From the NCBI RefSeq assembly GCF_024502345.1, contig NZ_JALDNN010000001.1: a stretch of 64,000 nucleotides of DNA; one strand, given 5' to 3'. Both the position numbers and the translations under genes were made by a program. This document shows positions 1-39,626 of the stretch, piece by piece (position 1 is the stretch's first letter; every line of letters begins with the position of its first letter). The notes below the pieces were generated by a model, which had not been told where the DNA came from, ran no database searches, and saw only the letters and a program-made list of their open reading frames with translations. This DNA is from Escherichia coli. Its GTDB lineage: Bacteria > Pseudomonadota > Gammaproteobacteria > Enterobacterales > Enterobacteriaceae.

Positions 1-230
1 ACCAGCGTTTGTCGACCGCCGTTGAACTGGGGAAATGGCCCGATGGCGTTGCGTTGACCGAGGAACAAAAAGCGAACTGCCTGCAACTGGTGATGCTGTG
101 GCAAGCTCGCCATAATACCGAAGCACAGCATATGACAATTGACACAAATGGTCAGATGGTCATGAAGAGCAAACAGCAGTTAAAAGAAGATTTTGGTATC
201 TCAGCAAAGCCTATTGCTATGTTTAAGTGA
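1..230 (+). CDS. 3' portion of a small conserved protein (DUF1315 / YeaC-like); start lies upstream of the window
   Basis: Frame is open from the window edge to the stop at 228-230. Translation ...LSTAVELGKWPDGVALTEEQKANCLQLVMLWQARHN... resembles the small YeaC-type protein from memory; not verified. Confidence 0.5.
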   Translation, partial: QRLSTAVELGKWPDGVALTEEQKANCLQLVMLWQARHNTEAQHMTIDTNGQMVMKSKQQLKEDFGISAKPIAMFK

Positions 231-390
231 ATGAGTTATCTAGTATTTAAGCCTGTTATTAAGGGAGGGCAAATATACTTGTTAGGACGTCGTGTTTTAG
301 CTGCAAGTAGGTTAAATGCAACACTGACAAGTATTATCTGGCCTACAATGTCATTGAGGAAATGTAGGCCAGAGATGAATTCAACTAATA

Positions 391-1032
391 TTACCCCTGC
401 GTCTCTTCCCAGTCTGCCAGCGTATATAGCGTTGCCCCAGCTGCTGACATCTCCATAAACGCGTGCGCACTGTCCTGGGGCTGGATATTCACGCCACGAC
501 AACCATCGGTAATCACGTTTACCTTATAACCTAACTGTAACGCGTCCAGCACGGTAAACTTCACGCAATAGTCAGTAGCCAGGCCCATAACGATCAATTC
601 ATCGATTTCATGATCGCGTAACCAGTCATCGAGAGAGGTTTTCTGCCGACGGCCGTTATCAAAAAAGGCACTGTAACTGTCAACTAAAGGATTTTCGCCT
701 TTATGGAACACCGCTGCGATCGCTTTTTGGTTCAGTAACGGATGTAATTGTGCGCCTTCACTGTTCTGCACACAGTGATCTGGCCAGAAGGTTTGTGGCA
801 AACCGTCGAGTTGGCCTGGCGTATAAGGCTCTACACCGTGCTGACTGGCAAAACTGCCGTGATTCGCCGGGTGCCAGTCCTGACTGGCGATAACCGCTTC
901 ACCGCGCGACTGGCACCAGTCAATCAGGCGGTTAGCGACATCTACCGTACTGTCACCTTCCGGCACGGCGAGCGCGCCACCAGCACAGAAATCATTTTGT
1001 AAATCGACCAGTAACAGGGCGCGAGGGGGCAT
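391..1032 (-). CDS. pncA: nicotinamidase / pyrazinamidase
   Basis: 213-aa product MPPRALLLVDLQNDFCAGGALAV... (isochorismatase fold). Track ORF extends 6 codons upstream; start set at the conserved MPPRALL. Lies 8 nt downstream of ansA. Confidence 0.93.
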   Translation of the reverse strand: MPPRALLLVDLQNDFCAGGALAVPEGDSTVDVANRLIDWCQSRGEAVIASQDWHPANHGSFASQHGVEPYTPGQLDGLPQTFWPDHCVQNSEGAQLHPLLNQKAIAAVFHKGENPLVDSYSAFFDNGRRQKTSLDDWLRDHEIDELIVMGLATDYCVKFTVLDALQLGYKVNVITDGCRGVNIQPQDSAHAFMEMSAAGATLYTLADWEETQG

Positions 1033-1042
1033 TGCAGTCTCC

Positions 1043-2059
1043 TTAATCATCCGGCGTCAGTTCGCCGCGCAGGTTTTGGCTCATGGCCTTGCGAATGGTT
1101 TCAGTATCCAGTTCCTGGCTCAGCAGGTAATGCAGTTTGGTTAGCGTGGCTTCTACAGTCATATCTGCACCGCCAATAACGCCGGCATGGGCGAGGGCGT
1201 TACCGGTGGCATAACCACCCATATTCACTTTACCGGACATACATTGTGTCAGGTTGACCACCACAATACCGCGATCGCTGGCTTCTTGTAATTCCTGCAG
1301 GAAGGCTTTGTTTTGTGGCGCATTACCCACGCCATAGGAGCGCAGAATCAATGCTTTCACCGGTTGGCGCAGAAAATTGCGCACGACATCAGCAGAAATC
1401 CCCGGATAAATCGTCACTACGCCAATTGGTTGTGGCGTGATTGGATGAACGATTAATTCCCCTTCACCGTGCGGGGCGGGTGGCGTATTCAAACGACGAA
1501 TATGGATACCAGCTTCCAGTAACGGAGGAAGGTTTGGAGAGGCAAACGCATCAAAACCATCGGCATGGGCTTTGGTAGTGCGGTTGCCGCGATACAATCG
1601 GTTATTGAAAAAGAGCGTTACTTCGTTGATCGGATAATTCGCCGCAACGTACAACGCATTCAGCAGATTAATTTGTCCGTCAGAGCGTAACTCAGCCAGC
1701 GGGATTTGTGACCCTGTCACAATGACCGGTTTACCGAGATTCTCGAGCATGAACGACAGCGCAGAGGCGGTATACGCCATCGTGTCGGTACCGTGTAGAA
1801 TGACAAAACCATCATAGTCGTCATAGTGCGCTTTAATATCTTCAGCAATATGCTGCCAGTCTTCCGGCGTCATATCAGAAGAATCCATCAACGGCGTATA
1901 TTCATGAATGGTGAAATCTGGCATCTCCGGGCGATGGAATTCCGGCATCAGCGCCAGTTGGCGTTGTAGATGACCTGACACCGGAATATAACCCTGCTCG
2001 GAACGCTGCATCCCGATGGTCCCGCCCGTGTAGGCGACGTAAATTGATTTCTTTTGCAT
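1043..2059 (-). CDS. ansA: cytoplasmic L-asparaginase I
   Basis: 338-aa ORF MQKKSIYVAYTGGTIGM...HGTDTMAYTASALSFM..., the asparaginase signature. Confidence 0.95.
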   Translation of the reverse strand: MQKKSIYVAYTGGTIGMQRSEQGYIPVSGHLQRQLALMPEFHRPEMPDFTIHEYTPLMDSSDMTPEDWQHIAEDIKAHYDDYDGFVILHGTDTMAYTASALSFMLENLGKPVIVTGSQIPLAELRSDGQINLLNALYVAANYPINEVTLFFNNRLYRGNRTTKAHADGFDAFASPNLPPLLEAGIHIRRLNTPPAPHGEGELIVHPITPQPIGVVTIYPGISADVVRNFLRQPVKALILRSYGVGNAPQNKAFLQELQEASDRGIVVVNLTQCMSGKVNMGGYATGNALAHAGVIGGADMTVEATLTKLHYLLSQELDTETIRKAMSQNLRGELTPDD

Positions 2060-2225
2060 GATATTGATATGAATGATATCGAAAGAGCAAAAGTATATAC
2101 GTGAGGCAGGAGGAGCGCACCTGATACTATGCGGATAAGGAAATATGGGGCGAGACAGCGGGAAGAGGATTCGTCGAGGTAAAAAATAATGTGGCCGACG
2201 ATCTGTCGGCCACTCAGTACAAGAC

Positions 2226-4082
2226 TTAACGCACGTTGGCGCAGGTCAGGCAAAACGCATAACGGTTTTGTGGGTCGTTAAACGCGGCCAGCTTGTCGCT
2301 TTCACTTTTAACGGTAGAGGCTACCGAGGCAAGCGGTGCAGGTAATATGGCCTGGAACGCATCTGGCAAAATTGCCCGGACAGAACCAGACATGTTGTCC
2401 ATCACTTTGTCGAAGAAGGTCGGTTCATCAACGTAGTATTCCAGATGCCACTGTTTCACTTTTGCGAGCTCTGCTGCTTTGGCAACCGCATCATCGAAAT
2501 CCCCGAGACTATCGACCAGCCCGTTAGCTTTTGCATCCTGACCGGTCCAGACGTGGCCCTGGGCGATTTTATCAATTTGCTCCGGCGTCGAATGACGCGC
2601 ATCAGCAACCAGCGTGATAAAGCGTTTATAGCCATTCTCAATGCTTAATTGCATCATCTGCTGCGCTTCCGGCGGCAGTGCCCTGGTGATAGAAACATCC
2701 GCCAGCGGTGAAGTTGAGACACCATCAGTATGAACACCAATCGAATCCAGACTATTTTCTACGGTGGTGATCACGCCGAAGATACCGATAGAACCGGTCA
2801 GGGTGCTGGGGTTAGCCACAATGTAATTAGCTGGCGTGGAAATCCAGTAACCACCAGATGCCGCCATGCCGCCCATCGATACAACCACAGGCTTACCCGC
2901 TGCCCGGGCTGCTGCCAGTTCAGCGCGAATCACTTCAGACGCGGTAACGCTGCCGCCTGGGCTATTAACACGCAGGACAATCGCTTTCACTTTCGGGTCA
3001 AGGCGAGCGTCGCGGATTTGTGCCGCAGTGGTATCACCGCCAACATTCCCCTGAGTTTCCTCGCCATCCATAATTGCGCCATTAGCGAAGACGACACCGA
3101 TGCTGTCACCGGTATCTGCCGGCGTTTTCAATGCGTAATCGTAATAACTGATGGCGCGATAATTTTTATCAGTCTTACTCCAGCCGAACTCTTTGGTCAG
3201 AGCTTTTTCGATTTCGGCACTCGATGCCAGTGCATCGACCAGCTTGTTTTCCAGTGCATATTTCGCGGTATCGCCACCGGTTTTGGTTAAACCCTCAAGC
3301 AACCCTTGCGCGCCAGGGAATACCTGCTGAGCAGGGATCTGCCGGTTAGCGGCAACAGTATTCAGATAGTTTTGCCACAGCTCACCAATCCAGCGGCTGT
3401 CAGCTTCGCGGGCTGCCGGTGACATGTCATCACGAATAAACGGTTCAACGGCAGATTTATACGTACCCACGCGGAACACATGGGTGGAAACTTTCAGCTT
3501 ATCCAGCAACGATTTGTAGTACAGACCGTTGGTAGCAAAACCGTGCAAATCCACCACGCCTTGCGGTGACAGCCAAATTTTATTGGCGAAACTGGCGAGA
3601 TAATATTGCCCCTGGCTGTAGTTCTCGCCAACGGCATAAACCGGTTTCCCGCTGTCACGAAACTCTTTCAGGGCTTTGCCGATGTACTGCATAGACGGCT
3701 GGTCGCCGCCTGCGAAGTTTTTCAGATCCATCACGATACCGGTGATATTGCGGTCGTCCTTCGCCTGGCGAATGGTGTTGACGATATCAAACAGTGAGTT
3801 TTCCTGCAGACGATCGGAACTGGCACCAAGCAGCTGGCGGCTTAATTTACTAAACCGCTGAGAACTGTCGGGTTTATCGACGATCACACCAGAAATGTCC
3901 AGCAGCAGTGCGCCACGACTGGCCGTTTCTTTCGAATCACCACCACTGACCTGCATCCAGATCCCCACACCAACCAGTACGAGGAAAATAAAGAACAGGT
4001 TAAGTACCATTTCACGGACGAAATTCAGCAGACGCCACGTCCATTTAAAAAATCCGGCAATAAATCGCCAAAGGGTTCGCAT
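2226..4082 (-). CDS. sppA: signal peptide peptidase A (protease IV)
   Basis: 618-aa product starting [21 protein letters not shown]... with an N-terminal TM segment and tandem S49 peptidase domains. Track ORF extends 48 codons further upstream. Confidence 0.93.
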
Positions 4083-4242
4083 GTATTCTCCCAACTTAAG
4101 GTCACACCTGTCACAGGCGCAATAGATGTGGTTATCGTAATGACCCAACCGGCACTTGTCAGCAGGAATTGCGGACTGTGCTGTAACAAAATCCACTCTC
4201 GTGTTAATTTTGTGAATAAATCTCACGACAGGAGTTAATCAA

Positions 4243-4794
4243 ATGGATGCACTCGAACTATTGATCAATCGCCGTAGCGCCTCCCGCCTGGCTGAACCCG
4301 CACCAACGGGTGAACAACTGCAAAACATCCTGCGTGCGGGTATGCGCGCGCCGGACCATAAGTCCATGCAACCGTGGCATTTTTTTGTGATTGAAGGGGA
4401 AGGGCGCGAGCGTTTCAGCGCCGTACTGGAACAGGGGGCGATTGCTGCCGGTAGTGATGACAAAGCTATCGACAAAGCCCGTAATGCGCCGTTCCGCGCA
4501 CCGCTCATCATCACGGTGGTGGCGAAATGCGAAGAAAATCATAAAGTCCCGCGATGGGAACAGGAAATGTCTGCCGGATGCGCGGTCATGGCGATGCAAA
4601 TGGCAGCCGTTGCCCAGGGATTTGGCGGCATCTGGCGCAGTGGCGCATTAACTGAAAGTCCGGTAGTGCGTGAAGCATTCGGTTGCCGTGAGCAGGATAA
4701 AATTGTCGGTTTTCTCTACCTCGGCACGCCGCAGTTGAAAGCATCTACGTCGATTAACGTCCCGGACCCGACGCCGTTTGTAACTTATTTCTGA
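4243..4794 (+). CDS. ydjA: NAD(P)H nitroreductase family protein
   Basis: 183-aa [29 protein letters not shown]...; divergent from sppA. Confidence 0.9.
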
Positions 4795-4910
4795 TAATTG
4801 TCGCGAAACTGTCTGGATTGTGAGCAAAGGCGCAGGAATTCAGAGACTCTCACTTATCACTTCACGGAATGAGGGTTACCATACCCGGATTGCATTGACA
4901 GGAGATGTCC

Positions 4911-5954
4911 ATGAGCGAGAACTCGATTCGTTTGACCCAATACAGCCACGGAGCTGGTTGCGGCTGTAAAATTTCCCCAAAAGTGTTGGAAACCATCCTG
5001 CACAGTGAGCAGGCGAAGTTTGTTGATCCGAATTTGCTTGTGGGTAATGAAACCCGCGACGATGCGGCGGTGTACGATCTGGGCAATGGCACCAGCGTTA
5101 TCAGTACCACCGACTTCTTTATGCCGATCGTTGATAATCCTTTCGATTTTGGCCGCATTGCGGCGACTAACGCCATCAGCGATATCTTCGCGATGGGGGG
5201 CAAACCGATTATGGCGATTGCGATCCTCGGCTGGCCGATTAACAAACTTTCCCCAGAAATTGCCCGCGAAGTAACCGAAGGTGGACGCTATGCATGCCGT
5301 CAGGCGGGTATTGCGCTGGCTGGCGGTCACTCCATCGATGCGCCGGAGCCGATTTTTGGTCTGGCGGTAACGGGGATCGTACCGACCGAGCGGGTGAAGA
5401 AAAACAGTACCGCACAAGCCGGATGCAAACTGTTCCTGACGAAACCGCTGGGGATCGGCGTTCTTACCACGGCTGAGAAAAAATCACTGTTGAAACCAGA
5501 ACATCAGGGACTGGCGACGGAAGTGATGTGCCGGATGAACATCGCAGGTGCGTCCTTTGCCAACATCGAAGGCGTAAAAGCGATGACCGACGTTACTGGT
5601 TTTGGTCTGCTGGGCCATTTGAGCGAAATGTGTCAGGGCGCAGGTGTGCAGGCGCGCGTTGACTATGACGCGATCCCAAAATTGCCGGGGGTTGAAGAGT
5701 ACATTAAGTTGGGCGCAGTGCCTGGCGGCACCGAACGTAACTTTGCCAGCTACGGTCATCTGATGGGTGAAATGCCGCGTGAAGTGCGCGATTTGCTGTG
5801 CGATCCGCAAACTTCTGGCGGTTTGCTGCTGGCGGTCATGCCGGAAGCAGAAAATGAGGTTAAAGCTACAGCCGCCGAGTTTGGCATTGAACTGACGGCG
5901 ATTGGCGAACTGGTGCCAGCGCGCGGCGGTCGTGCCATGGTTGAGATCCGTTAA
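4911..5954 (+). CDS. selD: selenide, water dikinase (selenophosphate synthetase)
   Basis: 347-aa product [30 protein letters not shown]... (Cys17 form). Track start is 2 codons upstream. Confidence 0.95.
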
Positions 5955-5958
5955 TTCA

Positions 5959-7920
5959 ATGCGGTTGTTTATTGCCGAAAAACCGAGTCTGGCGCGCGCC
6001 ATTGCTGATGTCCTGCCCAAACCGCACCGTAAAGGCGATGGCTTTATCGAGTGCGGTAATGGTCAGGTGGTGACCTGGTGTATCGGTCACCTGCTTGAGC
6101 AGGCGCAGCCAGACGCCTACGACAGCCGCTATGCGCGCTGGAATCTTGCGGATTTGCCGATTGTCCCGGAAAAGTGGCAATTACAGCCCCGACCCTCCGT
6201 GATCAAACAACTTAACGTCATCAAACGGTACCTGCATGAAGCCAGCGAAATCGTTCACGCCGGGGACCCGGATCGCGAAGGGCAACTGCTGGTGGATGAA
6301 GTGCTGGACTATCTGCAACTGGCACCGGAAAAGCGCCAGCAGGTGCAGCGTTGCTTGATAAACGACCTGAACCCGCAGGCGGTTGAGCGGGCGATCGACC
6401 GTCTTCGTTCCAACAGTGAGTTTGTACCGCTGTGCGTTTCTGCGCTGGCGCGAGCGCGTGCCGACTGGCTGTACGGCATCAATATGACCCGTGCGTATAC
6501 TATTCTCGGTCGCAATGCCGGTTATCAGGGCGTGCTTTCCGTGGGACGCGTGCAGACACCCGTGCTCGGGCTGGTGGTGCGCCGCGATGAAGAGATTGAA
6601 AACTTCGTGGCGAAAGACTTCTTTGAAGTCAAAGCGCATATCGTGACACCTGCCGATGAGCGGTTTACCGCTATCTGGCAACCGAGCGAAGCGTGTGAAC
6701 CGTACCAGGATGAAGAAGGGCGCTTGTTACATCGTCCACTGGCGGAGCATGTGGTTAACCGCATTAGTGGTCAACCGGCTATTGTCACCAGCTATAACGA
6801 TAAACGGGAATCAGAATCCGCGCCGCTGCCTTTTTCGCTTTCGGCGTTGCAGATTGAAGCGGCAAAACGTTTTGGTCTGAGTGCGCAGAACGTGCTTGAT
6901 ATCTGTCAGAAACTGTACGAAACGCACAAGCTAATCACTTATCCGCGTTCTGATTGTCGCTATTTGCCAGAAGAACATTTTGCCGGACGCCACGCGGTGA
7001 TGAATGCCATCAGCGTTCATGCACCGGATCTGTTGCCACAGCCAGTGGTAGATCCAGATATACGCAACCGCTGTTGGGATGACAAAAAGGTCGATGCGCA
7101 CCACGCCATCATTCCGACCGCACGGAGTTCTGCGATCAACCTGACGGAGAACGAAGCGAAGGTCTATAACCTGATTGCCCGTCAGTACTTGATGCAGTTC
7201 TGCCCGGATGCGGTGTTCCGCAAGTGTGTTATCGAACTGGACATTGCCAAAGGCAAATTTGTCGCTAAAGCGCGTTTTCTTGCTGAAGCAGGTTGGCGCG
7301 CGCTGTTAGGCAGCAAAGAGCGCGATGAAGAAAACGACGGCACGCCATTGCCTGTGGTGGCGAAAGGCGATGAGTTGCTGTGTGAAAAAGGTGAAGTGGT
7401 AGAGCGGCAAACCCAGCCGCCGCGCCATTTTACCGATGCAACACTGCTTTCGGCGATGACCGGGATCGCGCGCTTTGTGCAGGACAAAGATCTGAAAAAG
7501 ATCCTTCGTGCGACCGATGGTCTGGGGACAGAAGCAACGCGTGCCGGGATTATTGAACTGTTGTTCAAGCGTGGTTTCCTCACCAAAAAAGGGCGCTATA
7601 TCCACTCCACCGACGCCGGAAAAGCGTTATTCCATTCGCTGCCAGAAATGGCTACGCGACCGGACATGACCGCGCACTGGGAATCGGTGCTGACGCAAAT
7701 CAGCGAAAAGCAGTGTCGCTATCAGGACTTTATGCAGCCGCTGGTGGGGACGCTATATCAGCTTATTGATCAAGCCAAACGTACTCCGGTGCGGCAGTTT
7801 CGCGGCATTGTGGCTCCGGGCAGTGGTGGCAGTGCTGATAAGAAAAAGGCTGCACCGCGTAAACGTAGTGCGAAAAAAAGTCCGCCAGCAGATGAAGCCG
7901 GAAGCGGGGCGATAGCGTAA
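5959..7920 (+). CDS. topB: DNA topoisomerase III
   Basis: 653-aa product [48 protein letters not shown]... with Toprim and topo-IA domains. Starts 5 nt after the selD stop. Confidence 0.95.
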
Positions 7921-8171
7921 GCGAGCGAATCTTTCGTGCTATTCGAGTTATATTCTGAAATATCCAGCGGATCAAGAAAATTCGTTGGATATTTTTTTTG
8001 CATGGATAAAATTATCGCCTCTAAAGTACGTAATAACAGGGAATGTGATGAAAAAAGTTTTATTACAAAACCATCCTGGGAGCGAGAAGTATTCTTTTAA
8101 TGGCTGGGAAATATTTAATAGTAATTTTGAACGGATGATTAAAGAAAATAAGGCCATGCTGCTTTGTAAGT

Positions 8172-8181
8172 GGGGGGGGGG
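8172..8181. repeat. homopolymeric G10 tract inside ynjI, site of the frameshift
   Basis: Ten consecutive G read directly. G8 or G11 would restore a continuous ynjI frame. Confidence 0.9.
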
Positions 8182-9006
8182 TATTTAACATGTGTTGTCG
8201 CTGTAATGTTTGTATTCGCAGCGATAACATCCAACGGTTTGAATGAAAGAGGCCTGATTACCGCGGGATGCTCATTTCTTTATCTATTAATTATGATGGG
8301 GCTTATTGTTCGGGCCGGTTTTAAAGCAAAAAAAGAACAGCTGCATTATTATCAGGCTAAAGGTATTGAGCCGCTCAGTATCGAGAAATTACAGGCGCTA
8401 CAATTGATCACACCTTATCGATTCTATCATAAGCAATGGTCTGAAACGCTGGAGTTCTGGCCGCGAAAGCCTGAACCTGGCAAAGATACCTTCCAATATC
8501 ATGTGCTTCCTTTTTACTCGATCGATATCATAAGTAAAAGACGCGAGTCTTTAGAGGATCAATGGGGTATCGAAGATAGCGAAAGTTATTGTGCCTTAAT
8601 GGAGCATTTTCTTTCTGGCGACCATGGAGCCAATACCTTTAAAGCAAACATGGAGGAAGCCCCAGAGCAGGTTATCGCCTTGTTGAATAAATTTGCTGTT
8701 TTTCCCTCTGACTATATCTCTGATTGCGCTAATCATAGCTCCGGTAAATCCTCGGCGAAGCTAATATGGGCGGCGGAATTATCATGGATGACCTCGATAT
8801 CAAGCACAGCTTTTCAAAACGGGACAATTGAAGAAGAACTGGCCTGGCATTATATAATGCTTGCTTCTCGAAAGGCGCACGAGTTGTTCGAAAGCGAAGA
8901 AGATTATCAAAAAAATAGTCTAATGGGATTTCTTTACTGGCATATCTGCTGCTATCGCAGAAAGTTAACGGATGCTGAACTTGAAGCGTGTTATCGTTAC
9001 GACAAG

Positions 9007-9014: not shown

Positions 9015-9069
9015 GGTGATGCTGCCAACTTACTGATTTAGTGTATGATGGTGTTTTTGAGGTGCTCCA

Positions 9070-9345
9070 GTGGCTTCTGTTTCTATCAGCTGTCCCTCCT
9101 GTTCAGCTACTGACGGGGTGGTGCGTAACGGCAAAAGCACCGCCGGACATCAGCGCTATCTCTGCTCTCACTGCCGTAAAACATGGCAACTGCAGTTCAC
9201 TTACACCGCTTCTCAACCCGGTACGCACCAGAAAATCATTGATATGGCCATGAATGGCGTTGGATGCCGGGCAACCGCCCGAATTATGGGCGTTGGCCTC
9301 AACACGATTTTCCGCCATTTAAAAAACTCAGGCCGCAGTCGGTAA
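9070..9345 (+). CDS. insA: IS1 InsA (transposition repressor / N-terminal part of the transposase)
   Basis: 91-aa [43 protein letters not shown]... matches IS1 InsA. Confidence 0.95.
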
Positions 9346-9767
9346 CCTCGCGCATACAGCCGGGCAGTGACGTCATCGTCTGCGCGGAAATGGACGAACA
9401 GTGGGGATACGTCGGGGCTAAATCGCGCCAGCGCTGGCTGTTTTACGCGTATGACAGGCTCCGGAAGACGGTTGTTGCGCACGTATTCGGTGAACGCACT
9501 ATGGCGACGCTGGGGCGTCTTATGAGCCTGCTGTCACCCTTTGACGTGGTGATATGGATGACGGATGGCTGGCCGCTGTATGAATCCCGCCTGAAGGGAA
9601 AGCTGCACGTAATCAGCAAGCGATATACGCAGCGAATTGAGCGGCATAACCTGAATCTGAGGCAGCACCTGGCACGGCTGGGACGGAAGTCGCTGTCGTT
9701 CTCAAAATCGGTGGAGCTGCATGACAAAGTCATCGGGCATTATCTGAACATAAAACACTATCAATAA
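9264..9767 (+). CDS. insB: IS1 InsB reading frame (expressed as the InsAB' transposase by -1 frameshifting)
   Basis: ORF ...[21 protein letters not shown]...[39 protein letters not shown]...; the slippery TTAAAAAACTC motif lies at about 9318-9328. Confidence 0.92.
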
Positions 9768-9782
9768 GTTGGAGTCATTACC

Positions 9783-9876: not shown

Positions 9877-9976
9877 TTTTGCCGGGGGCGCTGCGCTTGC
9901 CCGGCCTACATTAGAGCGTAACTGCAATGAATTGTGCCCATTTGTAGGCCTGATAAGCGTAGCGCCATCAGGCATT
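9877..9976. repeat. REP / BIME palindromic elements between ynjI and gdhA
   Basis: gcccggcctaca ... tgtaggcctgataagcgtagcgccatcaggc, REP-type imperfect palindromes in inverted arrangement. Confidence 0.7.
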
Positions 9977-12293: not shown

Positions 12294-12914
12294 GTGCTAG
12301 ACCGCCATCTTCATCCCCGGATTAAACCGTTGTTGCATCAGTGCGTGCGGGTTCTTGATAAACCGGGCATTACGCCAGATGGTTTAACATTAGTGGGATT
12401 TGCCATCGGCGTGCTGGCTCTGCCGTTTCTGGCTCTGGGCTGGTATCTGGCGGCGCTAGTCGTCATTTTGTTGAATCGTCTGCTTGATGGTCTGGATGGC
12501 GCACTGGCGCGGCGCAGAGGGCTTACCGACGCGGGCGGATTTCTCGATATTTCTCTCGATTTTCTCTTTTACGCGCTGGTGCCGTTTGGTTTTATTCTTG
12601 CTGCACCGGAGCAAAATGCGCTGGCAGGCGGCTGGCTGCTGTTTGCGTTTATCGGTACGGGCAGCAGTTTTCTCGCTTTTGCTGCGCTGGCGGCGAAACA
12701 TCAGATTGATAATCCCGGTTATGCGCATAAATCGTTTTATTATCTGGGGGGATTAACCGAAGGCACAGAAACGATCTTACTGTTTGTGCTGGGATGTTTA
12801 TTCCCTGCATGGTTTGCGTGGTTTGCGTGGATCTTCGGTGCGTTGTGCTGGATGACGACCTTTACGCGGGTGTGGAGTGGGTATCTGACGCTGAAGTCGT
12901 TCCAGCGTCAGTAA
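12294..12914 (+). CDS. ynjF: CDP-alcohol phosphatidyltransferase family membrane protein
   Basis: 206-aa from the GTG at 12294, 6 nt after AAGGAG; the track start at 12288 abuts the RBS. Contains the DG..AR motif and multiple TM segments. Confidence 0.8.
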   Translation: MLDRHLHPRIKPLLHQCVRVLDKPGITPDGLTLVGFAIGVLALPFLALGWYLAALVVILLNRLLDGLDGALARRRGLTDAGGFLDISLDFLFYALVPFGFILAAPEQNALAGGWLLFAFIGTGSSFLAFAALAAKHQIDNPGYAHKSFYYLGGLTEGTETILLFVLGCLFPAWFAWFAWIFGALCWMTTFTRVWSGYLTLKSFQRQ

Positions 12915-12922
12915 TTGCAATG

Positions 12923-14230
12923 TTATTTGCTGCTGTCCGGGCCGCGTTCACCGGTTGCTACCGGATTTTTGGGATCGCTGCTCCATTCGTACCAGCCGCC
13001 GTCGTAAACGGAGACGTTATTCCAGCCCATTGCTCGTGCGTACATAAAGGTTTCGGACGCGCGCCAGCCGGTGCCGCAGTAGAATGAAACTTGCTGATCT
13101 GGTTTGATATTCCATGCTTTCCACATAGCGGTAATATCATCGGCGCTACGCATGGTGCCATCGGGGTTATGGAAATCTTCCATATGCGTCGAGTCGCTAC
13201 CAGCGTGTCCCCAACGTGCTCCGGCTATTTCACCTTTTGGTTTAATATAACTGTAACCGCTGGTCGTACCGATAAATTCTGGCCACGAACGAATGCTCAC
13301 CAGCGATGCATCCTGGCGATGCAGCAGTCCACGGGCCTGTTCCATATCGAGCATCAACTGCGGTTGCGCCGGGATCTTCACGCCGAAATCCGGTTCCGCT
13401 TTCACTTTCGGTGGCGTTCCGCGCTCAACAGGCAGTCCCGCGTCGGACCAGGTTTGCCAGCCGCCATCCAGCAGGCGCACATCTTTCACGCCAGCATAAA
13501 GCATAATCTGCGCCACACGCGCTGCAGCATATACGTCACGCCCGTACAGAATGACCGTGGTGTCATGGCGAATGCCGTGTTTTGCCAGCATCGCTTTTAG
13601 TTGTTCATCAGAAACTTTGTTCCACAGCGGTTCGCTTTCCACTTCGTTGGTATCGATGTAGTCAGCGCCAGGAATATGGCTGATAAGGTAAAGCTTAGGA
13701 GCGCCCCAGGCCGCTTCAATGACTTTCCAGTCTCCGGCAGGTTTCGCCGTAACCTCTTTACCTTGTTGCAGGTCGTGCAGCCATTGCGGATAAACCAGCT
13801 GCTCAAAGTGCGGCAGTTTTTGTAGACGGGAAGGTTCGCTTAGCGCGTCACTCAGAATGGAGATATGCGTAAAACCTGCTTTTTGCAGTCGCGTTTTGAC
13901 GGCGTCGACATCTTTGCCATTACCGTATAGCGCCACCGGGGCATCGGCTTTCAGGTTATGTTGCTTGATCCACGCGTTTAGCTGTTCGGTGCTCATTTTG
14001 TCAAGCCAGCTAGCAGAGAGGTTTAAGGCGGCAGGTTCATGACCAGAAGGGCCATTTAAGGTTTGTGGCCAGCCGTTATAAAACGCGCTGGGGCGAGTAT
14101 CTATCGCTTTGCCATTTTGTTGTTGAAGCTGGTCAAGTGTAAGAGGCTTCGCCAGTTCAGCGGCCCACGAAGAAGCGCAAGCCAGCCCTAAAGCCATTGC
14201 CAGCGCGGTCATTTGAGAAACACGTTTCAT
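12923..14230 (-). CDS. ynjE: periplasmic sulfurtransferase with three rhodanese domains
   Basis: 435-aa MKRVSQMTALAMALGLACASSWAAE... with a signal peptide and three rhodanese repeats. Confidence 0.9.
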   Translation of the reverse strand: MKRVSQMTALAMALGLACASSWAAELAKPLTLDQLQQQNGKAIDTRPSAFYNGWPQTLNGPSGHEPAALNLSASWLDKMSTEQLNAWIKQHNLKADAPVALYGNGKDVDAVKTRLQKAGFTHISILSDALSEPSRLQKLPHFEQLVYPQWLHDLQQGKEVTAKPAGDWKVIEAAWGAPKLYLISHIPGADYIDTNEVESEPLWNKVSDEQLKAMLAKHGIRHDTTVILYGRDVYAAARVAQIMLYAGVKDVRLLDGGWQTWSDAGLPVERGTPPKVKAEPDFGVKIPAQPQLMLDMEQARGLLHRQDASLVSIRSWPEFIGTTSGYSYIKPKGEIAGARWGHAGSDSTHMEDFHNPDGTMRSADDITAMWKAWNIKPDQQVSFYCGTGWRASETFMYARAMGWNNVSVYDGGWYEWSSDPKNPVATGERGPDSSK

Positions 14231-14296
14231 CGAAAATCCCGACATTGTAGTTTTGAGTGCGCCATTCTGAACTGACGCATTGGGAAAAACTTTGCG

Positions 14297-14950
14297 TTAT
14301 CGCAGTTTGTTGTAATTTTCTGACCACTGAGCCATATCCAGAACAGAACTATCAGCAGGAACATCCTGGAGATCGTGCGTTACCTGAACGACGGGGAGCG
14401 CCAGTTCGCGAACTTCGCTGAACACCCACTGGCGAAAATTATCGCGCAGAGCCACATCAAGACGGCTGAATGGCTCATCCAGTAGCAACGCTTTTGGCTG
14501 AGCGAGAAGGGCGCGAAGCAGAGCAACGCGCGCTCGCTGACCGCCAGACAAAGTGGCAGGATCCTGATGGAAAGCTCCGTCAAGGCCTGAACGCTCAAGT
14601 GCATCATTCACGGCATTACGTCGGGCATTCCCCTTAAGTGTCGCCGGTAGCGCCAGCAGTAAATTTTGCCCGACACTGAACTGGTCAAATAACAGTACAT
14701 CCTGGAAAAGAATGCCAATATGACGCTGTGCGGTGGGTAGCATGTCAATCCGTTGCTCATTGAGCCATAGCTCACCTGTACAAGAAAACTGTCCAGCCAG
14801 TGCACCAATCATCCATGAAAACAGAGTGGATTTTCCACAGCCAGACGGACCCATTAACGTGACAATGTCACCTTTATCCACCGTAAAGTTAACGTTTGTC
14901 AGCAAGCGGCTTTCTGGTAAACGTAGCGAAACATTTTTCACGCAGAGCAT
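14297..14950 (-). CDS. ynjD: ABC transporter ATP-binding protein
   Basis: 217-aa MLCVKNVSL...GPSGCGKST...LSGGQRARVALLRAL...LLLDEP (Walker A, signature, Walker B). Its start overlaps the ynjC stop by 1 nt. Confidence 0.9.
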   Translation of the reverse strand: MLCVKNVSLRLPESRLLTNVNFTVDKGDIVTLMGPSGCGKSTLFSWMIGALAGQFSCTGELWLNEQRIDMLPTAQRHIGILFQDVLLFDQFSVGQNLLLALPATLKGNARRNAVNDALERSGLDGAFHQDPATLSGGQRARVALLRALLAQPKALLLDEPFSRLDVALRDNFRQWVFSEVRELALPVVQVTHDLQDVPADSSVLDMAQWSENYNKLR

Positions 14951-16485
14951 TAGCGGAGTCCTTGTCTGACATAACCTACCCATTTTGCGACTAACGCGGT
15001 CAGGGCAAAAATAGTAAGCGGTAATAGCAGTTGCCATAAAGCCTGGGCGGCGAGAATACCGTTGCTGCCGCCGCTGCTTAATGCCACCGCCTCAGTGGTG
15101 AGCGTCGGAAAACGCCCCGCGCCCAGCCACAGCGTCGGCATATACTGCGCAATACTGACTGAAAATCCCACCGCGAAGGCAATCAGCGTAGGGCGTAGCA
15201 TAAGCGGACATTTCACGTAAAAGAAGATTTTGGCCCGCGACCAGCCCAGTGTTTGTGCAATCAAAATTAACCGTGAATCAATGCGCTGCCAGGCGGGTTG
15301 CAGGATAAACAGCATCCACGGCATTACCCACAGCAGATGCCCCCAGACCACCGCCGTCCAGCTTCCATCCATGTTCAGCCATAGCGCCAGCGTGTACTGG
15401 CCCGCCACCAGCTGCAGTGCCGGTAATAAAATGGGCAACCATAGCCACAACTGGCGACGCTGTGGCCCCCATTCCAGCCACAGCAGTAACAGGAGCCAAG
15501 CGATGAATGTCGCCACCAGCCCCATTGTCAGGCTGTTGATGAGCGCTTCACTATTGATCGTCGACTGATCCGCGAGGATCGCCAGCAGAACCACACACAG
15601 CACACCGGTCAAGGGTAAAAAACTCGCCAGCGTAATGCCTGGCAATAAAGGCGTGGCAGGCTTACGAACGCCATCTACGCGGGGAATAGTACGCCGCCAG
15701 GTACACCATAGCAGATAGCCCAGCAAAACGTAGGCGGCGAGTAACAACATCAGCAGCAGGCTGGCGAGTGCGCCTTTCGTTTGTTGATCGGCGTCGCCCT
15801 GAGTTAACCACTGCCAGCTAATTACTGCCAGCGTCGGTGGATTACCTGGCCCAAGAATAATCGCCACATCCACGACCGACAGCGACCAGGCAACAATCGC
15901 CAGCATCGCCATTGCCAGCGCAGGCGCGACGGAGGGCAACAGCAGCCAGTTCAGGCATTGCCAGCGGCTGTAGCCCAGCGAATCCAGCACGATGACTTGC
16001 TGTAAAAGCCGTTTTTCACTCAATACCGCTGCTAAGATCCACAGCAGAAATGCGCTTTCTTTCACCGCCAGCGTGAAGCCCAGCCCAATACCCAATTTGT
16101 CCATTGGCGGAGTGAAATACGGGAAATAGTCATAAAGCAGCCCTCCGTCAGCAAAGAGCAGAAGGGCGCTGGTGGCAAAAGCCACATGGGGAATGGCGAG
16201 CAGCCACGGCAGACGGGTGCACATACGCTGCCATTTCGGCCCAGGCCACAGCGCCACAATCACCAGCAGGGCAATCAACAACGCCCCGACCGCCGCGATG
16301 GTTGTCGACACCAGCGTTGCCAGTAATGCCTGCGGTAACTGTGGATCGGCAAATAACGCCTGCCAGTGTGTCAACGACAAAGCAGGCGATATCAGCGTGA
16401 GAGCTGCCGGGATCAGCGGTGCATAAATCACCGCCACCATCGCCCACAGCAAAAAGATTAATGCGTACCGTAACGGTGTAGCCAT
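14950..16485 (-). CDS. ynjC: ABC transporter permease with two fused permease domains
   Basis: 511-aa highly hydrophobic product MATPLRYALIFLLWAMVAV... Confidence 0.9.
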   Translation of the reverse strand: MATPLRYALIFLLWAMVAVIYAPLIPAALTLISPALSLTHWQALFADPQLPQALLATLVSTTIAAVGALLIALLVIVALWPGPKWQRMCTRLPWLLAIPHVAFATSALLLFADGGLLYDYFPYFTPPMDKLGIGLGFTLAVKESAFLLWILAAVLSEKRLLQQVIVLDSLGYSRWQCLNWLLLPSVAPALAMAMLAIVAWSLSVVDVAIILGPGNPPTLAVISWQWLTQGDADQQTKGALASLLLMLLLAAYVLLGYLLWCTWRRTIPRVDGVRKPATPLLPGITLASFLPLTGVLCVVLLAILADQSTINSEALINSLTMGLVATFIAWLLLLLWLEWGPQRRQLWLWLPILLPALQLVAGQYTLALWLNMDGSWTAVVWGHLLWVMPWMLFILQPAWQRIDSRLILIAQTLGWSRAKIFFYVKCPLMLRPTLIAFAVGFSVSIAQYMPTLWLGAGRFPTLTTEAVALSSGGSNGILAAQALWQLLLPLTIFALTALVAKWVGYVRQGLR

Positions 16486-17624
16486 TCTTGTTCCAGCGCA
16501 TTTACCCAACCTGCGTGCGGTTCAGCCAGTACCGGCGGCAGATCTTGCGGCATTCTTGATTGCAATGTTTCGCGCTGCCCATCAGGCAGTTTTTGCGGAT
16601 CGAGAACAGAAGGATCGCCCCAGACAGCGGGATCTGCTTTACGCAATTGCGCATCGGGTGAGAGCAAGAAATTGGCAACTACCTTCGCCGCAGCACTGGC
16701 ATTCGCGTTGGCAGGAATGGTGACGAAATGCACGTTGCCAATCGTCCCCTCGCGAAAGCCAAAACTGTAACTGCTTGCAGGCAAATCGCCGCTGGCGATT
16801 TTTTGCTGCGCATGCGCGGGGTTAAAGGTCAGCGACAGGCGCAATGTGCCGGCTTTCAGCAGAGCATCCATCCGCGCGGGCGAAGGCGGGAAATCCTTTC
16901 CTTCGCGCCACAAATACGGATGCAGCGCATCAAGATATTGCCACAAGGGAGCAGTGACGCGGGCGAAAGTCGCATCGTCCGGCGCTTCTTTTAATGCGGC
17001 GGGATCGGCCGTCAGCATAATCAGCAACTGTTCAAGAAACGCCGTGCCGGTAAAGTCCGGTGGGCGCGGATAGGTAACCGTGCCGGGATTGGCTTTAGCA
17101 AACTCCAGTAAGGCTTGCGGCGTTTGTGGTGGCTGTGGCGTAACATCGCGGCGGGCGATAAATGTCAGTTGTGCGCCCCCCCAGGGCGATTCAGCCCCTT
17201 CTGTAGGCACTGAAAAATCTTCCCGCACCGGCAGCTGTGTGTCGACATAGCGCCAGTTGGGCAGAGTCTCTGCCCAGTCGGTTTGCAGTAAATTGGCCTC
17301 TTTTAAGGTGCGGAAGTTTTCGCCGTTCACCCAGAGTAGATCCACCGAGCCGCCCGTTTTACGTCCGGCTGCGGCTTCGGTCTGAATGCGCTTCACCGCG
17401 TCTGCGGCATCCGCCAGACGGACAATCTTCAGGTTTATAGCGTAATGGGTTTTCATCTCGCCGCTCACCCAGTCGAGATAGCGGTTAATTGCGGTATCGC
17501 CGCCCCAGGCGTTAAACCAGACGGTTTGCCCTTTGGCCTCATTTTTAATTTCTTGCCAGTCACTGGCATATGTTGCCAGAGAAAACAGCGATAACAATCC
17601 CAGCAACCACCCACAATGGCGCAT
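16458..17624 (-). CDS. ynjB: ABC transporter periplasmic substrate-binding protein
   Basis: 388-aa product with a signal peptide (MRHCGWLLGLLSLFSLATYA); overlaps the ynjC start. Confidence 0.88.
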   Translation of the reverse strand: MRHCGWLLGLLSLFSLATYASDWQEIKNEAKGQTVWFNAWGGDTAINRYLDWVSGEMKTHYAINLKIVRLADAADAVKRIQTEAAAGRKTGGSVDLLWVNGENFRTLKEANLLQTDWAETLPNWRYVDTQLPVREDFSVPTEGAESPWGGAQLTFIARRDVTPQPPQTPQALLEFAKANPGTVTYPRPPDFTGTAFLEQLLIMLTADPAALKEAPDDATFARVTAPLWQYLDALHPYLWREGKDFPPSPARMDALLKAGTLRLSLTFNPAHAQQKIASGDLPASSYSFGFREGTIGNVHFVTIPANANASAAAKVVANFLLSPDAQLRKADPAVWGDPSVLDPQKLPDGQRETLQSRMPQDLPPVLAEPHAGWVNALEQEWLHRYGTH

Positions 17625-37318: not shown

Positions 37319-37328
37319 GTAAGGTGGT

Positions 37329-37356
37329 AAGGTCACTCCCCAGGGGACGTGACCTT
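37329..37356. terminator. bidirectional terminator-like hairpin between convergent chbG and katE
   Basis: aaggtcac tccccagggga c gtgacctt: 8-bp stem with an internally palindromic loop, in the 46-nt gap between convergent stops. Confidence 0.55.
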
Positions 37357-37364
37357 ATCCATAT

Positions 37365-39626
37365 TTACGCCGGAATTTTGTCAATCTTAGGAATGCGTGA
37401 CCACACGCGGTGTGCTGCCATCAGCGTTAACAGTTCATCCATAAAACTACCGTCGGCGCTGTCAGCTTCCACAATCCCTTCTTCACCCTGGTCAGCGACC
37501 TTGATTGTTGCTTTAAACTTGCGCGCGTCTCCCGCCAGCGCAATCGGTTTAAGGTGTTTGTAGGCTTCCATCAGGTAGTAGTTGGCATCGCCGTTGTCAG
37601 CGATATCCGCGATATTGCCGCAAGGGACAATGACCGCATCGACCGTCAGCGAAGGCGCACCGGCAAAGGTAGCGGCTATAGGCAACACCGTACCGTCATC
37701 CGCAGTCACTTCACCCATTCGGGAGTAGAGCAGTTTGGCATGAACGCCTTTGGCCTTCAGGGCCTTAAGAATGGCCAGAAGGTCTGCCGATCTCACTTCA
37801 TCATTAAGTAAAATCGCTACCACGCGACCTTTCACATCACCGTCAGGAATGGCGTACAAACTTAAGGATGGATCCTTTTTCAGACCGTTGACGTCCGGAG
37901 GTGGGGTGATATTCAGCTGGTCGTCAGTCAGTTCGATACCGAGATTTTTCGCCACCGCCTGGGCCAGAGTGAGATCAATATGCGCCAGCTGGTCAACAAC
38001 GCGCTCACGAATATACGGACGAACGACTTTGCTTAACTCAAAACTGAAACCATCGACAATATGACGCTGCTCGAATGGCGTCTGACTTAGCCAGAACAGA
38101 CGCGGATGGGAATAATATTCGCCAAAAGATGGACTGCGCTCGCGAACTTTATTTCCTTCCACGCGTTCCTGATATGATTCAAAACCGCCGCGTTTCGGTC
38201 CCGGCGGTGTTTCGCGCGGCCAGTTATCGTTGATCGAGTTCGGTTCGTAATTCGCCGGGTTAGTGTCGATCCCCATACGATGCATGCCATCACGCTGGAA
38301 GTTGTGGTAAGGGCAGGTCGGACGGTTAATCGGAATCTCATGGAAATTCGGCCCACCAAGACGACTGATTTGTGTATCGGTATAGGAGAACAAACGTCCC
38401 TGCAACAGCGGATCGTTGGTGAAGTCCAGTCCCGGCACGATATGCCCAGGATGGAAAGCCGCCTGTTCGTTTTCAGCAAAGAAGTTATCCGGGTTGCGAT
38501 TGAGCACCATTTTGCCGACACGCTGAACGGGCACCAGTTCTTCCGGGATAAGTTTGGTTGGATCGAGAAGATCGAAGTCGAACTTGAATTCATCTTCTTC
38601 AGGAATCAACTGGAAGCCCAGTTCGTATTCCGGAAAATCGCCTGCTTCAATGGCTTCCCACAACTCGCGGCGGTGGAAGTCCGGGTCACGTCCGGTTAGT
38701 TTTTGTGCTTCATCCCAAACGAGTGAGGCTTTACCTGCCAGTGGTTTCCAGTGGAAACGTACAAACGTTGCCTTCCCTTCGGCATTAATCAGGCGGAAGG
38801 TATGAATACCAAAGCCTTCCATGGTGCGGTAACTGCGGGGGATGCCGCGATCCGACATCGCCCACATCACGTTGTGCAGAGTTTCAGGTTGCAGAGAAAC
38901 ATAATCCCAGAAAGTATCGTGGGCGCTTTGCCCTTGTGGAATTGCCCAGTGTGGTTCTGGTTTTACCGCATGAACAAAATCGGGGAATTTATGCGCATCC
39001 TGGATAAAGAAGATTGGCGTGTTATTGCCAACAAGGTCAAAAATACCCTCTTCGGTATAGAATTTGGTGGCAAAGCCACGGATATCACGCACGGTATCGG
39101 CAGAGCCAGCACCACCCTGAACAGTAGAGAACCTAACAAATACTGGGGTGATTTTGTTCGGATCTGAGAGGAAATCCGCTTTGGTGATATCGCTTAAGCT
39201 TTTATATGGCTGGAAATAACCGTGAGCTGCTGATCCACGTGCATGAACAATACGTTCCGGGATGCGCTCATGGTCAAAGTGGGTGATTTTCTCGCGCAGA
39301 ATAAAATCTTCCAGCAGCGTTGGACCACGGCTACCGGCACGCAGTGAGTTTTGATCGTCGGCGATGCGCACGCCCTGATTAGTGGTCAGCGCATAATTTT
39401 CACTGCCTTTGCGTACGTCTTCCAGAGAATTAAGTTTTTCGTTACGTGTATCAGGGGCTTTCAGGCTCCCAGGGGCGGTAGGTTGTGCACCTGGCGGTGT
39501 TGGTTCAGCCGCTGGACGATGAGATCCGTCCTCAGGTGCCAGTGAGTCCATCCCCGGTTTCGCTTCGCTGGAATCGTGTAGTGGTGACTGGTGCTGATGT
39601 GGGTTCTTTTCGTTATGTTGCGACAT
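37365..39626 (-). CDS. katE: catalase HPII
   Basis: 753-aa [38 protein letters not shown]... Confidence 0.96.

Follow-up and report, generated by a model that had tools for sequence, protein, structure and literature searches.

In Escherichia coli K-12 MG1655 the genes pncA and yeaC are separated by 9.1 kb of DNA, and the order of the region (b1768-b1777) is pncA-ydjE-F-G-H-I-J-K-L-yeaC. The ydjE-ydjL block encodes two MFS transporters, a DeoR-type regulator, a kinase, an aldolase and three dehydrogenases/reductases, and the K-12 annotation of the interval contains ydjE-L only. The ydj genes have already been described as a variable operon, with a ydjI prevalence of 96.6% in phylogroup A, 29.9% in B1, 50% in C and 100% in B2/D/E (PMC9602453). 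In a pan-genome study, ydjE, ydjH and ydjJ were assigned to the "extended core" and ydjH was recorded as a true deletion in some strains (PMC12595684), while another paper mentions only ydjM (PMC3444427). The variable presence of ydj and its low frequency in phylogroup B1 are already known.

In the E. coli window analyzed here (i.e. the whole stretch of 64,000 nucleotides under study), pncA and yeaC are direct neighbours. At pncA-yeaC there is very probably an old polymorphism in which the 9.1-kb ydjE-ydjL block alternates with a spacer of ~93 bp; the window has the "empty" one of these two alleles, and the two forms have probably been swapped by recombination in the flanks.

Organization of the pncA-yeaC locus

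The features distinguished at the beginning of the window are as follows.

1..230, plus strand: 3′ part of yeaC (DUF1315 protein), residues 16-90 and stop codon, identified by tblastn, blastn and RefSeq naming; the window begins inside the gene
229..321, no strand: allele-specific spacer of the ydj-less form, with a G+C content of 36.6%; 93 bp according to BLAST, ~241-315 when aligned by hand
322..390, no strand: pncA-proximal intergenic stretch common to ydj+ chromosomes, defined by blastn, alignment and divergence profile
337..373, no strand: hairpin-forming palindrome, arms 337-347 and 363-373, 15-nt loop
391..1032, minus strand: pncA (nicotinamidase/pyrazinamidase), stop codon at 391-393; from the ORF list, with identical RefSeq coordinates in the matching genome L002
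1043..2059, minus strand: ansA (asparaginase I), from the ORF list, RefSeq annotation and comparison with K-12

The first reading frame is that of yeaC: positions 3-227 share 97.3% amino acid identity with residues 16-90 of K-12 YeaC (tblastn), the DNA of positions 1-228 is 97.8% identical to b1777 (blastn), and the TGA stop codon occupies 228-230. This is also the name that RefSeq gives to the gene in matching genomes, and the PF07023/DUF1315 domain was found on the 90-aa YeaC product of draft contig L087 (GCA_050022275.1), which is 99.98% identical to the window. The PncA protein is 99.5% identical to that of K-12. Both genes are convergent, and the intergenic gap between them (231-390) is exactly 160 bp long, so a preliminary description of this DNA was correct in placing the end of a YeaC-like ORF 160 bp from the pncA stop codon. 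Beyond pncA the K-12 gene order (ansA, sppA, ydjA, selD, topB) is unchanged. No homologue of the ydj genes was found anywhere in the 64-kb window, as the same description had supposed for ydjE-ydjL, and window 1-1100 contains neither an IS element nor a ydj fragment.

The mechanically predicted pncA ORF starts 6 codons upstream of the annotated gene (MIKETAM..., window 1033-1050) and overlaps the end of ansA; the RefSeq start is at 1032. Two further ORFs within the gap, 231-458 (plus strand) and 236-502 (minus strand), are open in both E. coli haplotypes of the spacer described below. They were treated as spurious, being absent from the RefSeq annotation, overlapping pncA in antisense and containing stop codons in the related genome L006. 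An Rfam scan of positions 1-1100 (E ≤ 1) returned just AsdA and the Mnt IRES, both at chance level and far under their gathering scores, and a promoter and terminator scan of the same region found none.

Several other differences from K-12 were observed in the window. A copy of IS1 (InsA/InsB frames) at 9017-9782 is inserted, relative to K-12, in ynjI, whose frame is truncated; the junction overlap is ~10 bp, and draft contig L087 ends inside this element. In the katE-chbG intergenic region (37325-37371), ~258 bp of K-12 are replaced by 47 bp with a strong hairpin (GGTAAGGTCAC...GTGACCTTATCC), another small replacement-type difference. Identity to K-12 falls to 94.8-97% in positions 5501-6000 and 12501-16500, as against 98-99.5% elsewhere, and these stretches may be recombination tracts.

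The junction and its distribution in E. coli

Comparison with K-12 by blastn revealed a segment of 9,117 bp (K-12 record L001, 3588-12704) that has no counterpart in the window and in whose place only 93 bp (229-321) are found. The preliminary description had placed ydjE-ydjL between pncA and yeaC in K-12, and the 9.1 kb lying there mean that K-12 does not share the adjacency; its "deletion or ancestral-absence junction of roughly 9 kb" is right as worded. On the pncA side, homology to K-12 spans pncA and the adjoining ~70 intergenic bp, in which the palindrome lies, and stops after ...GCAT at 316-321. Window 322-1100 is aligned by blastn to L001 3587-2820, and the shared stretch 322-390 lies, in K-12, between pncA and ydjE. 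On the yeaC side, homology stops within ~12 bp of the stop codon. The shared intergenic core of ~70 bp is ~80-86% identical to K-12, including an 11-bp indel (the K-12 version being an 11-bp deletion). The flanking genes pncA, ansA, sppA, msrB and gapA are 98-100% identical, a divergence of the ordinary within-species level.

Remnants of the spacer in the ydj regions of K-12 and Escherichia sp. E1V33, and of those regions in the spacer, were sought by local alignment against shuffled sequences, and nothing above chance was found. Since a plain deletion would leave parental sequence only and the spacer has no match in the ydj region, the junction is not the scar of a plain deletion. Nor does the adjacency result from misassembly, because it recurs in 1,089 complete genomes as well as in the independent, near-identical draft assembly GCA_050022275.1.

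These complete genomes come from a sample of 5,426 for E. coli, 5,425 of which gave a match at the locus; the arrangement was taken as contiguous where a single place in a genome accounted for 80% or more of window 1-1100. The comparison of the junction with K-12 and other E. coli, which the preliminary description had envisaged, placed contiguous yeaC-pncA in 1,089/5,425 genomes (99.5-99.7% identity) and the ydj block in 4,336/5,425. As these counts add up to 5,425, the two alleles split all locus-bearing genomes at ~80:20 (ydj+ : ydj-less). The spacer (229-321) is present in one copy each in 1,086 genomes and in no ydj+ genome. The ydj genes do not seem to have been relocated in the ydj-less genomes: only 4,336 genomes match the block at all, and the 64-kb window has no copy. 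Among the listed ydj-less carriers are O26:H11 str. 11368 and O103 and O111 strains, and the arrangement is, judging from these counts, a common allele and not a strain-specific event.

The nearest complete genome was searched for with window 1-9000 as the query. Even the best of the 5,426 reaches no more than 99.4% identity over this interval, and the exact SppA variant of the window is rare (7 contigs). The source lineage is thus poorly represented among complete E. coli genomes, and may be a Shigella or some unusual lineage.

The presence of the block in K-12 and in 80% of E. coli would also agree with the idea that a K-12-like ancestor in the strain's own lineage recently lost ydjE-ydjL through illegitimate or IS-mediated recombination. 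Recent IS-mediated losses of ydj do exist: E. coli KTa005 (L093 3593-4913) has a copy of IS1 beside yeaC together with a truncated ydjE, i.e. an IS1-mediated partial deletion, and the block is less than 80% complete in 75 genomes. Moreover, an IS1 element lies 9 kb away in the window. However, the 93 bp of the junction are found in no ydj+ chromosome, the identical junction is shared by 1,089 genomes, among which two diverged haplotypes occur, and by another Escherichia lineage, and neither an IS element nor a truncated ydj gene is located at the junction. We regard a recent deletion as extremely improbable, and the sequence comparisons effectively refute it.

Age of the two alleles and variability of the site

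Within E. coli the spacer exists in at least two haplotypes that are ~5-6% apart. It also has an ortholog in genome L006 (deposited as E. coli SCPM-O-B-8794), which is ydj-less and matches window 1-7920 in a single collinear alignment at 91.3% identity. The alignment score of the spacer with the pncA-yeaC spacer of L006 was 78, compared with 23 ± 3.7 for shuffled sequences, and blastn E-values ranged from 1e-6 down to 1e-22. Given the two haplotypes, and an ortholog in a lineage that shares 91% identity with the window, the spacer predates the diversification of E. coli. The ydj+ genome of Escherichia sp. E1V33 (L004) and the ydj-less L006, whose species identity is in both cases judged by percent identity, are 91-95% identical to each other, and aligning them gives the same two breakpoints as aligning K-12 with the window. 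A single ancient event, now represented in several Escherichia lineages, appears to underlie both alleles. The spacers of Salmonella and Citrobacter show no homology to the Escherichia spacer.

The ydj block is located at the same site beside pncA in E1V33, Citrobacter youngae, Klebsiella spallanzanii and Yokenella, and also in Citrobacter sp. FP75. Identities to K-12 for the first four are as follows.

Escherichia sp. E1V33: ydj block 89.2%, flanks 88-91%
Citrobacter youngae: ydj block 78.5%, flanks 78.5-80.4%
Klebsiella spallanzanii: ydj block 78.8%, flanks 75.7-77.2%
Yokenella: ydj block 77.3%, flanks 77.1-78.8%

Since its identity to K-12 equals that of the flanks in four other lineages, the block is old at this locus and not a recent island. 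Its G+C content is 46.4%, with 51.8% and 47.9% in its flanks and a window mean of 50.2%. Marks of a mobile island were sought around the K-12 ydj block, and no integrase, transposase, tRNA, terminal repeats or target duplication were found, nor any repeat pairs bridging its ends.

Comparison of 67 Enterobacterales loci revealed that the interval between pncA and yeaC is a variable site. Direct adjacency of the two genes (gap ≤ 274 bp) was found at 34 of the 67 loci, including those of Salmonella, Yersinia, Serratia oryzae, Pantoea and Xenorhabdus. A further 26 carry an insert of 1.3-2.8 kb, which in the loci examined contains a GH18-like gene, sometimes accompanied by an HNH-like gene. The former encodes a GH18-like (chitinase-like) secreted protein of 417-461 aa and occupies the site in several Enterobacterales, with a truncated copy in Citrobacter sp. 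On2M (L031); the 114-aa HNH-like gene is present there in some Citrobacter. In all four Citrobacter, Klebsiella and Yokenella ydj loci, ydjL is followed by the GH18-like gene, and no remnants of this gene were found by tblastn in the Escherichia and Salmonella spacers. In Kluyvera, 7.7-7.9 kb of other genes separate pncA from yeaC. Downstream of pncA in E. albertii NBRC 107761 (L003 2128-3701), a 112-aa membrane-protein ORF and an ISAs1/H-repeat-type transposase take the place of yeaC or ydjE, and a related 117-aa ORF occupies the same site in Citrobacter werkmanii (L016). The observations on GH18-like, HNH-like and Kluyvera cargo between pncA and yeaC come from loci L010, L014, L009, L016, L022-L024, L033, L039, L054 and L065.

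This variability bears on a further explanation, that of pure ancestral absence, in which the window would keep the original empty site and ydj would be an island acquired horizontally, relatively recently, by the ancestor of most E. coli. The frequency of convergent pncA-yeaC with a gap of at most 274 bp (34/67 Enterobacterales loci), the G+C content of the ydj block (46.4%), which is below the window mean (50.2%), and the different cargo carried in different genera, which marks the site as a hot spot, are all in its favour. Nevertheless, ydj occupies the same site in E1V33, C. youngae, K. spallanzanii and Yokenella with a divergence no different from that of its flanks, and is therefore at least as old as those splits. 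In addition, the block is not bordered by two parts of the spacer, neither a target duplication nor a mobility gene is present, and the spacers of Salmonella and Citrobacter are not homologous to that of Escherichia, so there is no demonstrated continuity of the empty state. We consider pure ancestral absence possible, if on balance unlikely.

In the preferred reading, an old two-allele polymorphism, the founding difference would have had a single origin, long ago, in or before the genus Escherichia. We lean slightly to an ancient loss over a gain as the founding event, since four other lineages have ydj at the same site with as much divergence as in its flanks; the pncA-yeaC adjacency in outgroups (34/67 loci) and the lower G+C content of ydj (46.4% versus ~50%) would favour a gain. 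The alleles would then have been inherited and exchanged among different backgrounds through homologous recombination in the flanks, i.e. pncA/ansA on one side and yeaC/msrB/gapA on the other, probably with no participation of mobile-element machinery. Repeated flank recombination fits the presence of an old, diverged allele core inside otherwise homogenised flanks, and it is from this sharply localised divergence that we infer the mode of spread.

A wider form of this explanation would be a trans-species polymorphism of the ydj operon and the 93-bp spacer, kept or repeatedly exchanged across Escherichia with identical breakpoints under niche-dependent selection, the interval being an Enterobacterales hot spot of cassette exchange (ydj, GH18-like, HNH-like and other clusters) via flank recombination. 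We regard this extension as speculative and rather improbable; if true, it would be of modest evolutionary interest.

A ydj-less strain would presumably be without a pathway for an uncertain acid-sugar substrate, and its allele leaves pncA and yeaC as convergent neighbours 160 bp apart. The allele is a handy lineage marker, mostly of phylogroup B1 (PMC9602453). As the junction belongs to an alternative allele that is old and has a spacer of its own, "deletion" calls at pncA-yeaC that are centred on K-12 should not be taken as recent gene loss.

The hairpin downstream of pncA and comparison with known systems

The palindrome in the shared pncA-proximal stretch has the arms ggcctaca (340-347) and tgtaggcc (363-370), which extend to a full stem of 11 bp (337-347/363-373) enclosing a loop of 15 nt. 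The folding energies of the two strands are -18.9 and -20.7 kcal/mol, with z-scores of -3.1 and -3.7 against shuffled sequences. By our own estimate, ~7e-4 perfect 11-bp inverted repeats (loop ≤ 20 nt) are expected per 160 random bases, and the palindrome is therefore not a chance occurrence. K-12, Escherichia sp. E1V33 and L006 have a conserved stem and a variable loop. The palindrome occurs in ydj+ and ydj- alleles alike, 20-55 bp within the stretch common with K-12 and not at the breakpoint.

The preliminary description had called this palindrome in the gap (~340-370) REP-like. The palindrome itself is real, but the REP body is missing, the sequence is single-copy and it lies outside the junction. 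That a REP/BIME element brought about or marks the rearrangement could be suspected from the GTAGGCC motif, the E. coli REP head, which occurs on both arms, at 364 (plus strand) and 346 (minus strand), in an extragenic site between convergent genes, and which faces outward like the REP pair at 9909/9944. That canonical pair (window 9905-9975; GTAGGCCTGATAAGCG... and GTAGGCCGGGCAAGCG...) adjoins IS1 and served as the REP reference. One arm of the palindrome goes on with GTAGGCCAGATAA, compared with GTAGGCCTGATAA in the true REP, so that GATAA on one arm is shared besides the head. However, the imperfect G+C-rich palindrome that forms the REP body, ~35 nt after GTAG (e.g. GCCTGATAAGCG...CATCAGGC), is absent: GTAGGCC is followed by AGAGATGAATTC on one arm and AGATAATACTTG on the other, whereas the REPs at 9909/9944 have the full body. 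Window 330-380 was found in exactly one place per genome, at this locus only, in 1,089 genomes, all of them ydj-less. The position of the palindrome within the K-12-shared stretch, off the breakpoint, and its occurrence in ydj+ and ydj- alleles alike also speak against a REP origin of the rearrangement, which we consider very unlikely. The K-12 record has no repeat features of any kind, and the missing REP annotation there was not used as evidence.

As regards an intrinsic terminator, the stem is present, the loop is 15 nt long, neither strand has a T-run, and the scan of positions 1-1100 gave 0 terminator-like sites. The palindrome is a single-copy local hairpin, neither a member of the REP family nor a mark of rearrangement, and would most likely serve as a transcript-end or stabilising stem 3′ of pncA.

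Compared with known systems, the window palindrome resembles the REP/BIME elements of E. coli in being extragenic and palindromic with the GTAGGCC head on both arms, but it has no REP body, is single-copy and has a stem built from the head motifs themselves. Salmonella enterica (subsp. arizonae and diarizonae) also has convergent pncA and yeaC genes with a spacer of 181-274 bp and without ydj; its spacer sequence, however, is unrelated, carries a true REP-like element beside yeaC and lacks the GGCCTACA hairpin. The K-12 pncA-ydjEFGHIJKL-yeaC locus has the same flanking genes in the same orientation and the same hairpin 3′ of pncA, but contains 9,117 bp where the window has ~93 bp, and its hairpin loop differs. 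The ydj-less E. coli (O26:H11 11368, O103, O111 and others), which a few SNPs set apart from the window (99.4% identity over 9 kb for the nearest of the complete genomes), share its gene order, its 160-bp gap and 99.5-99.7% identity over 1,100 bp, and in many of these genomes the spacer is 100% identical over its 93 bp.
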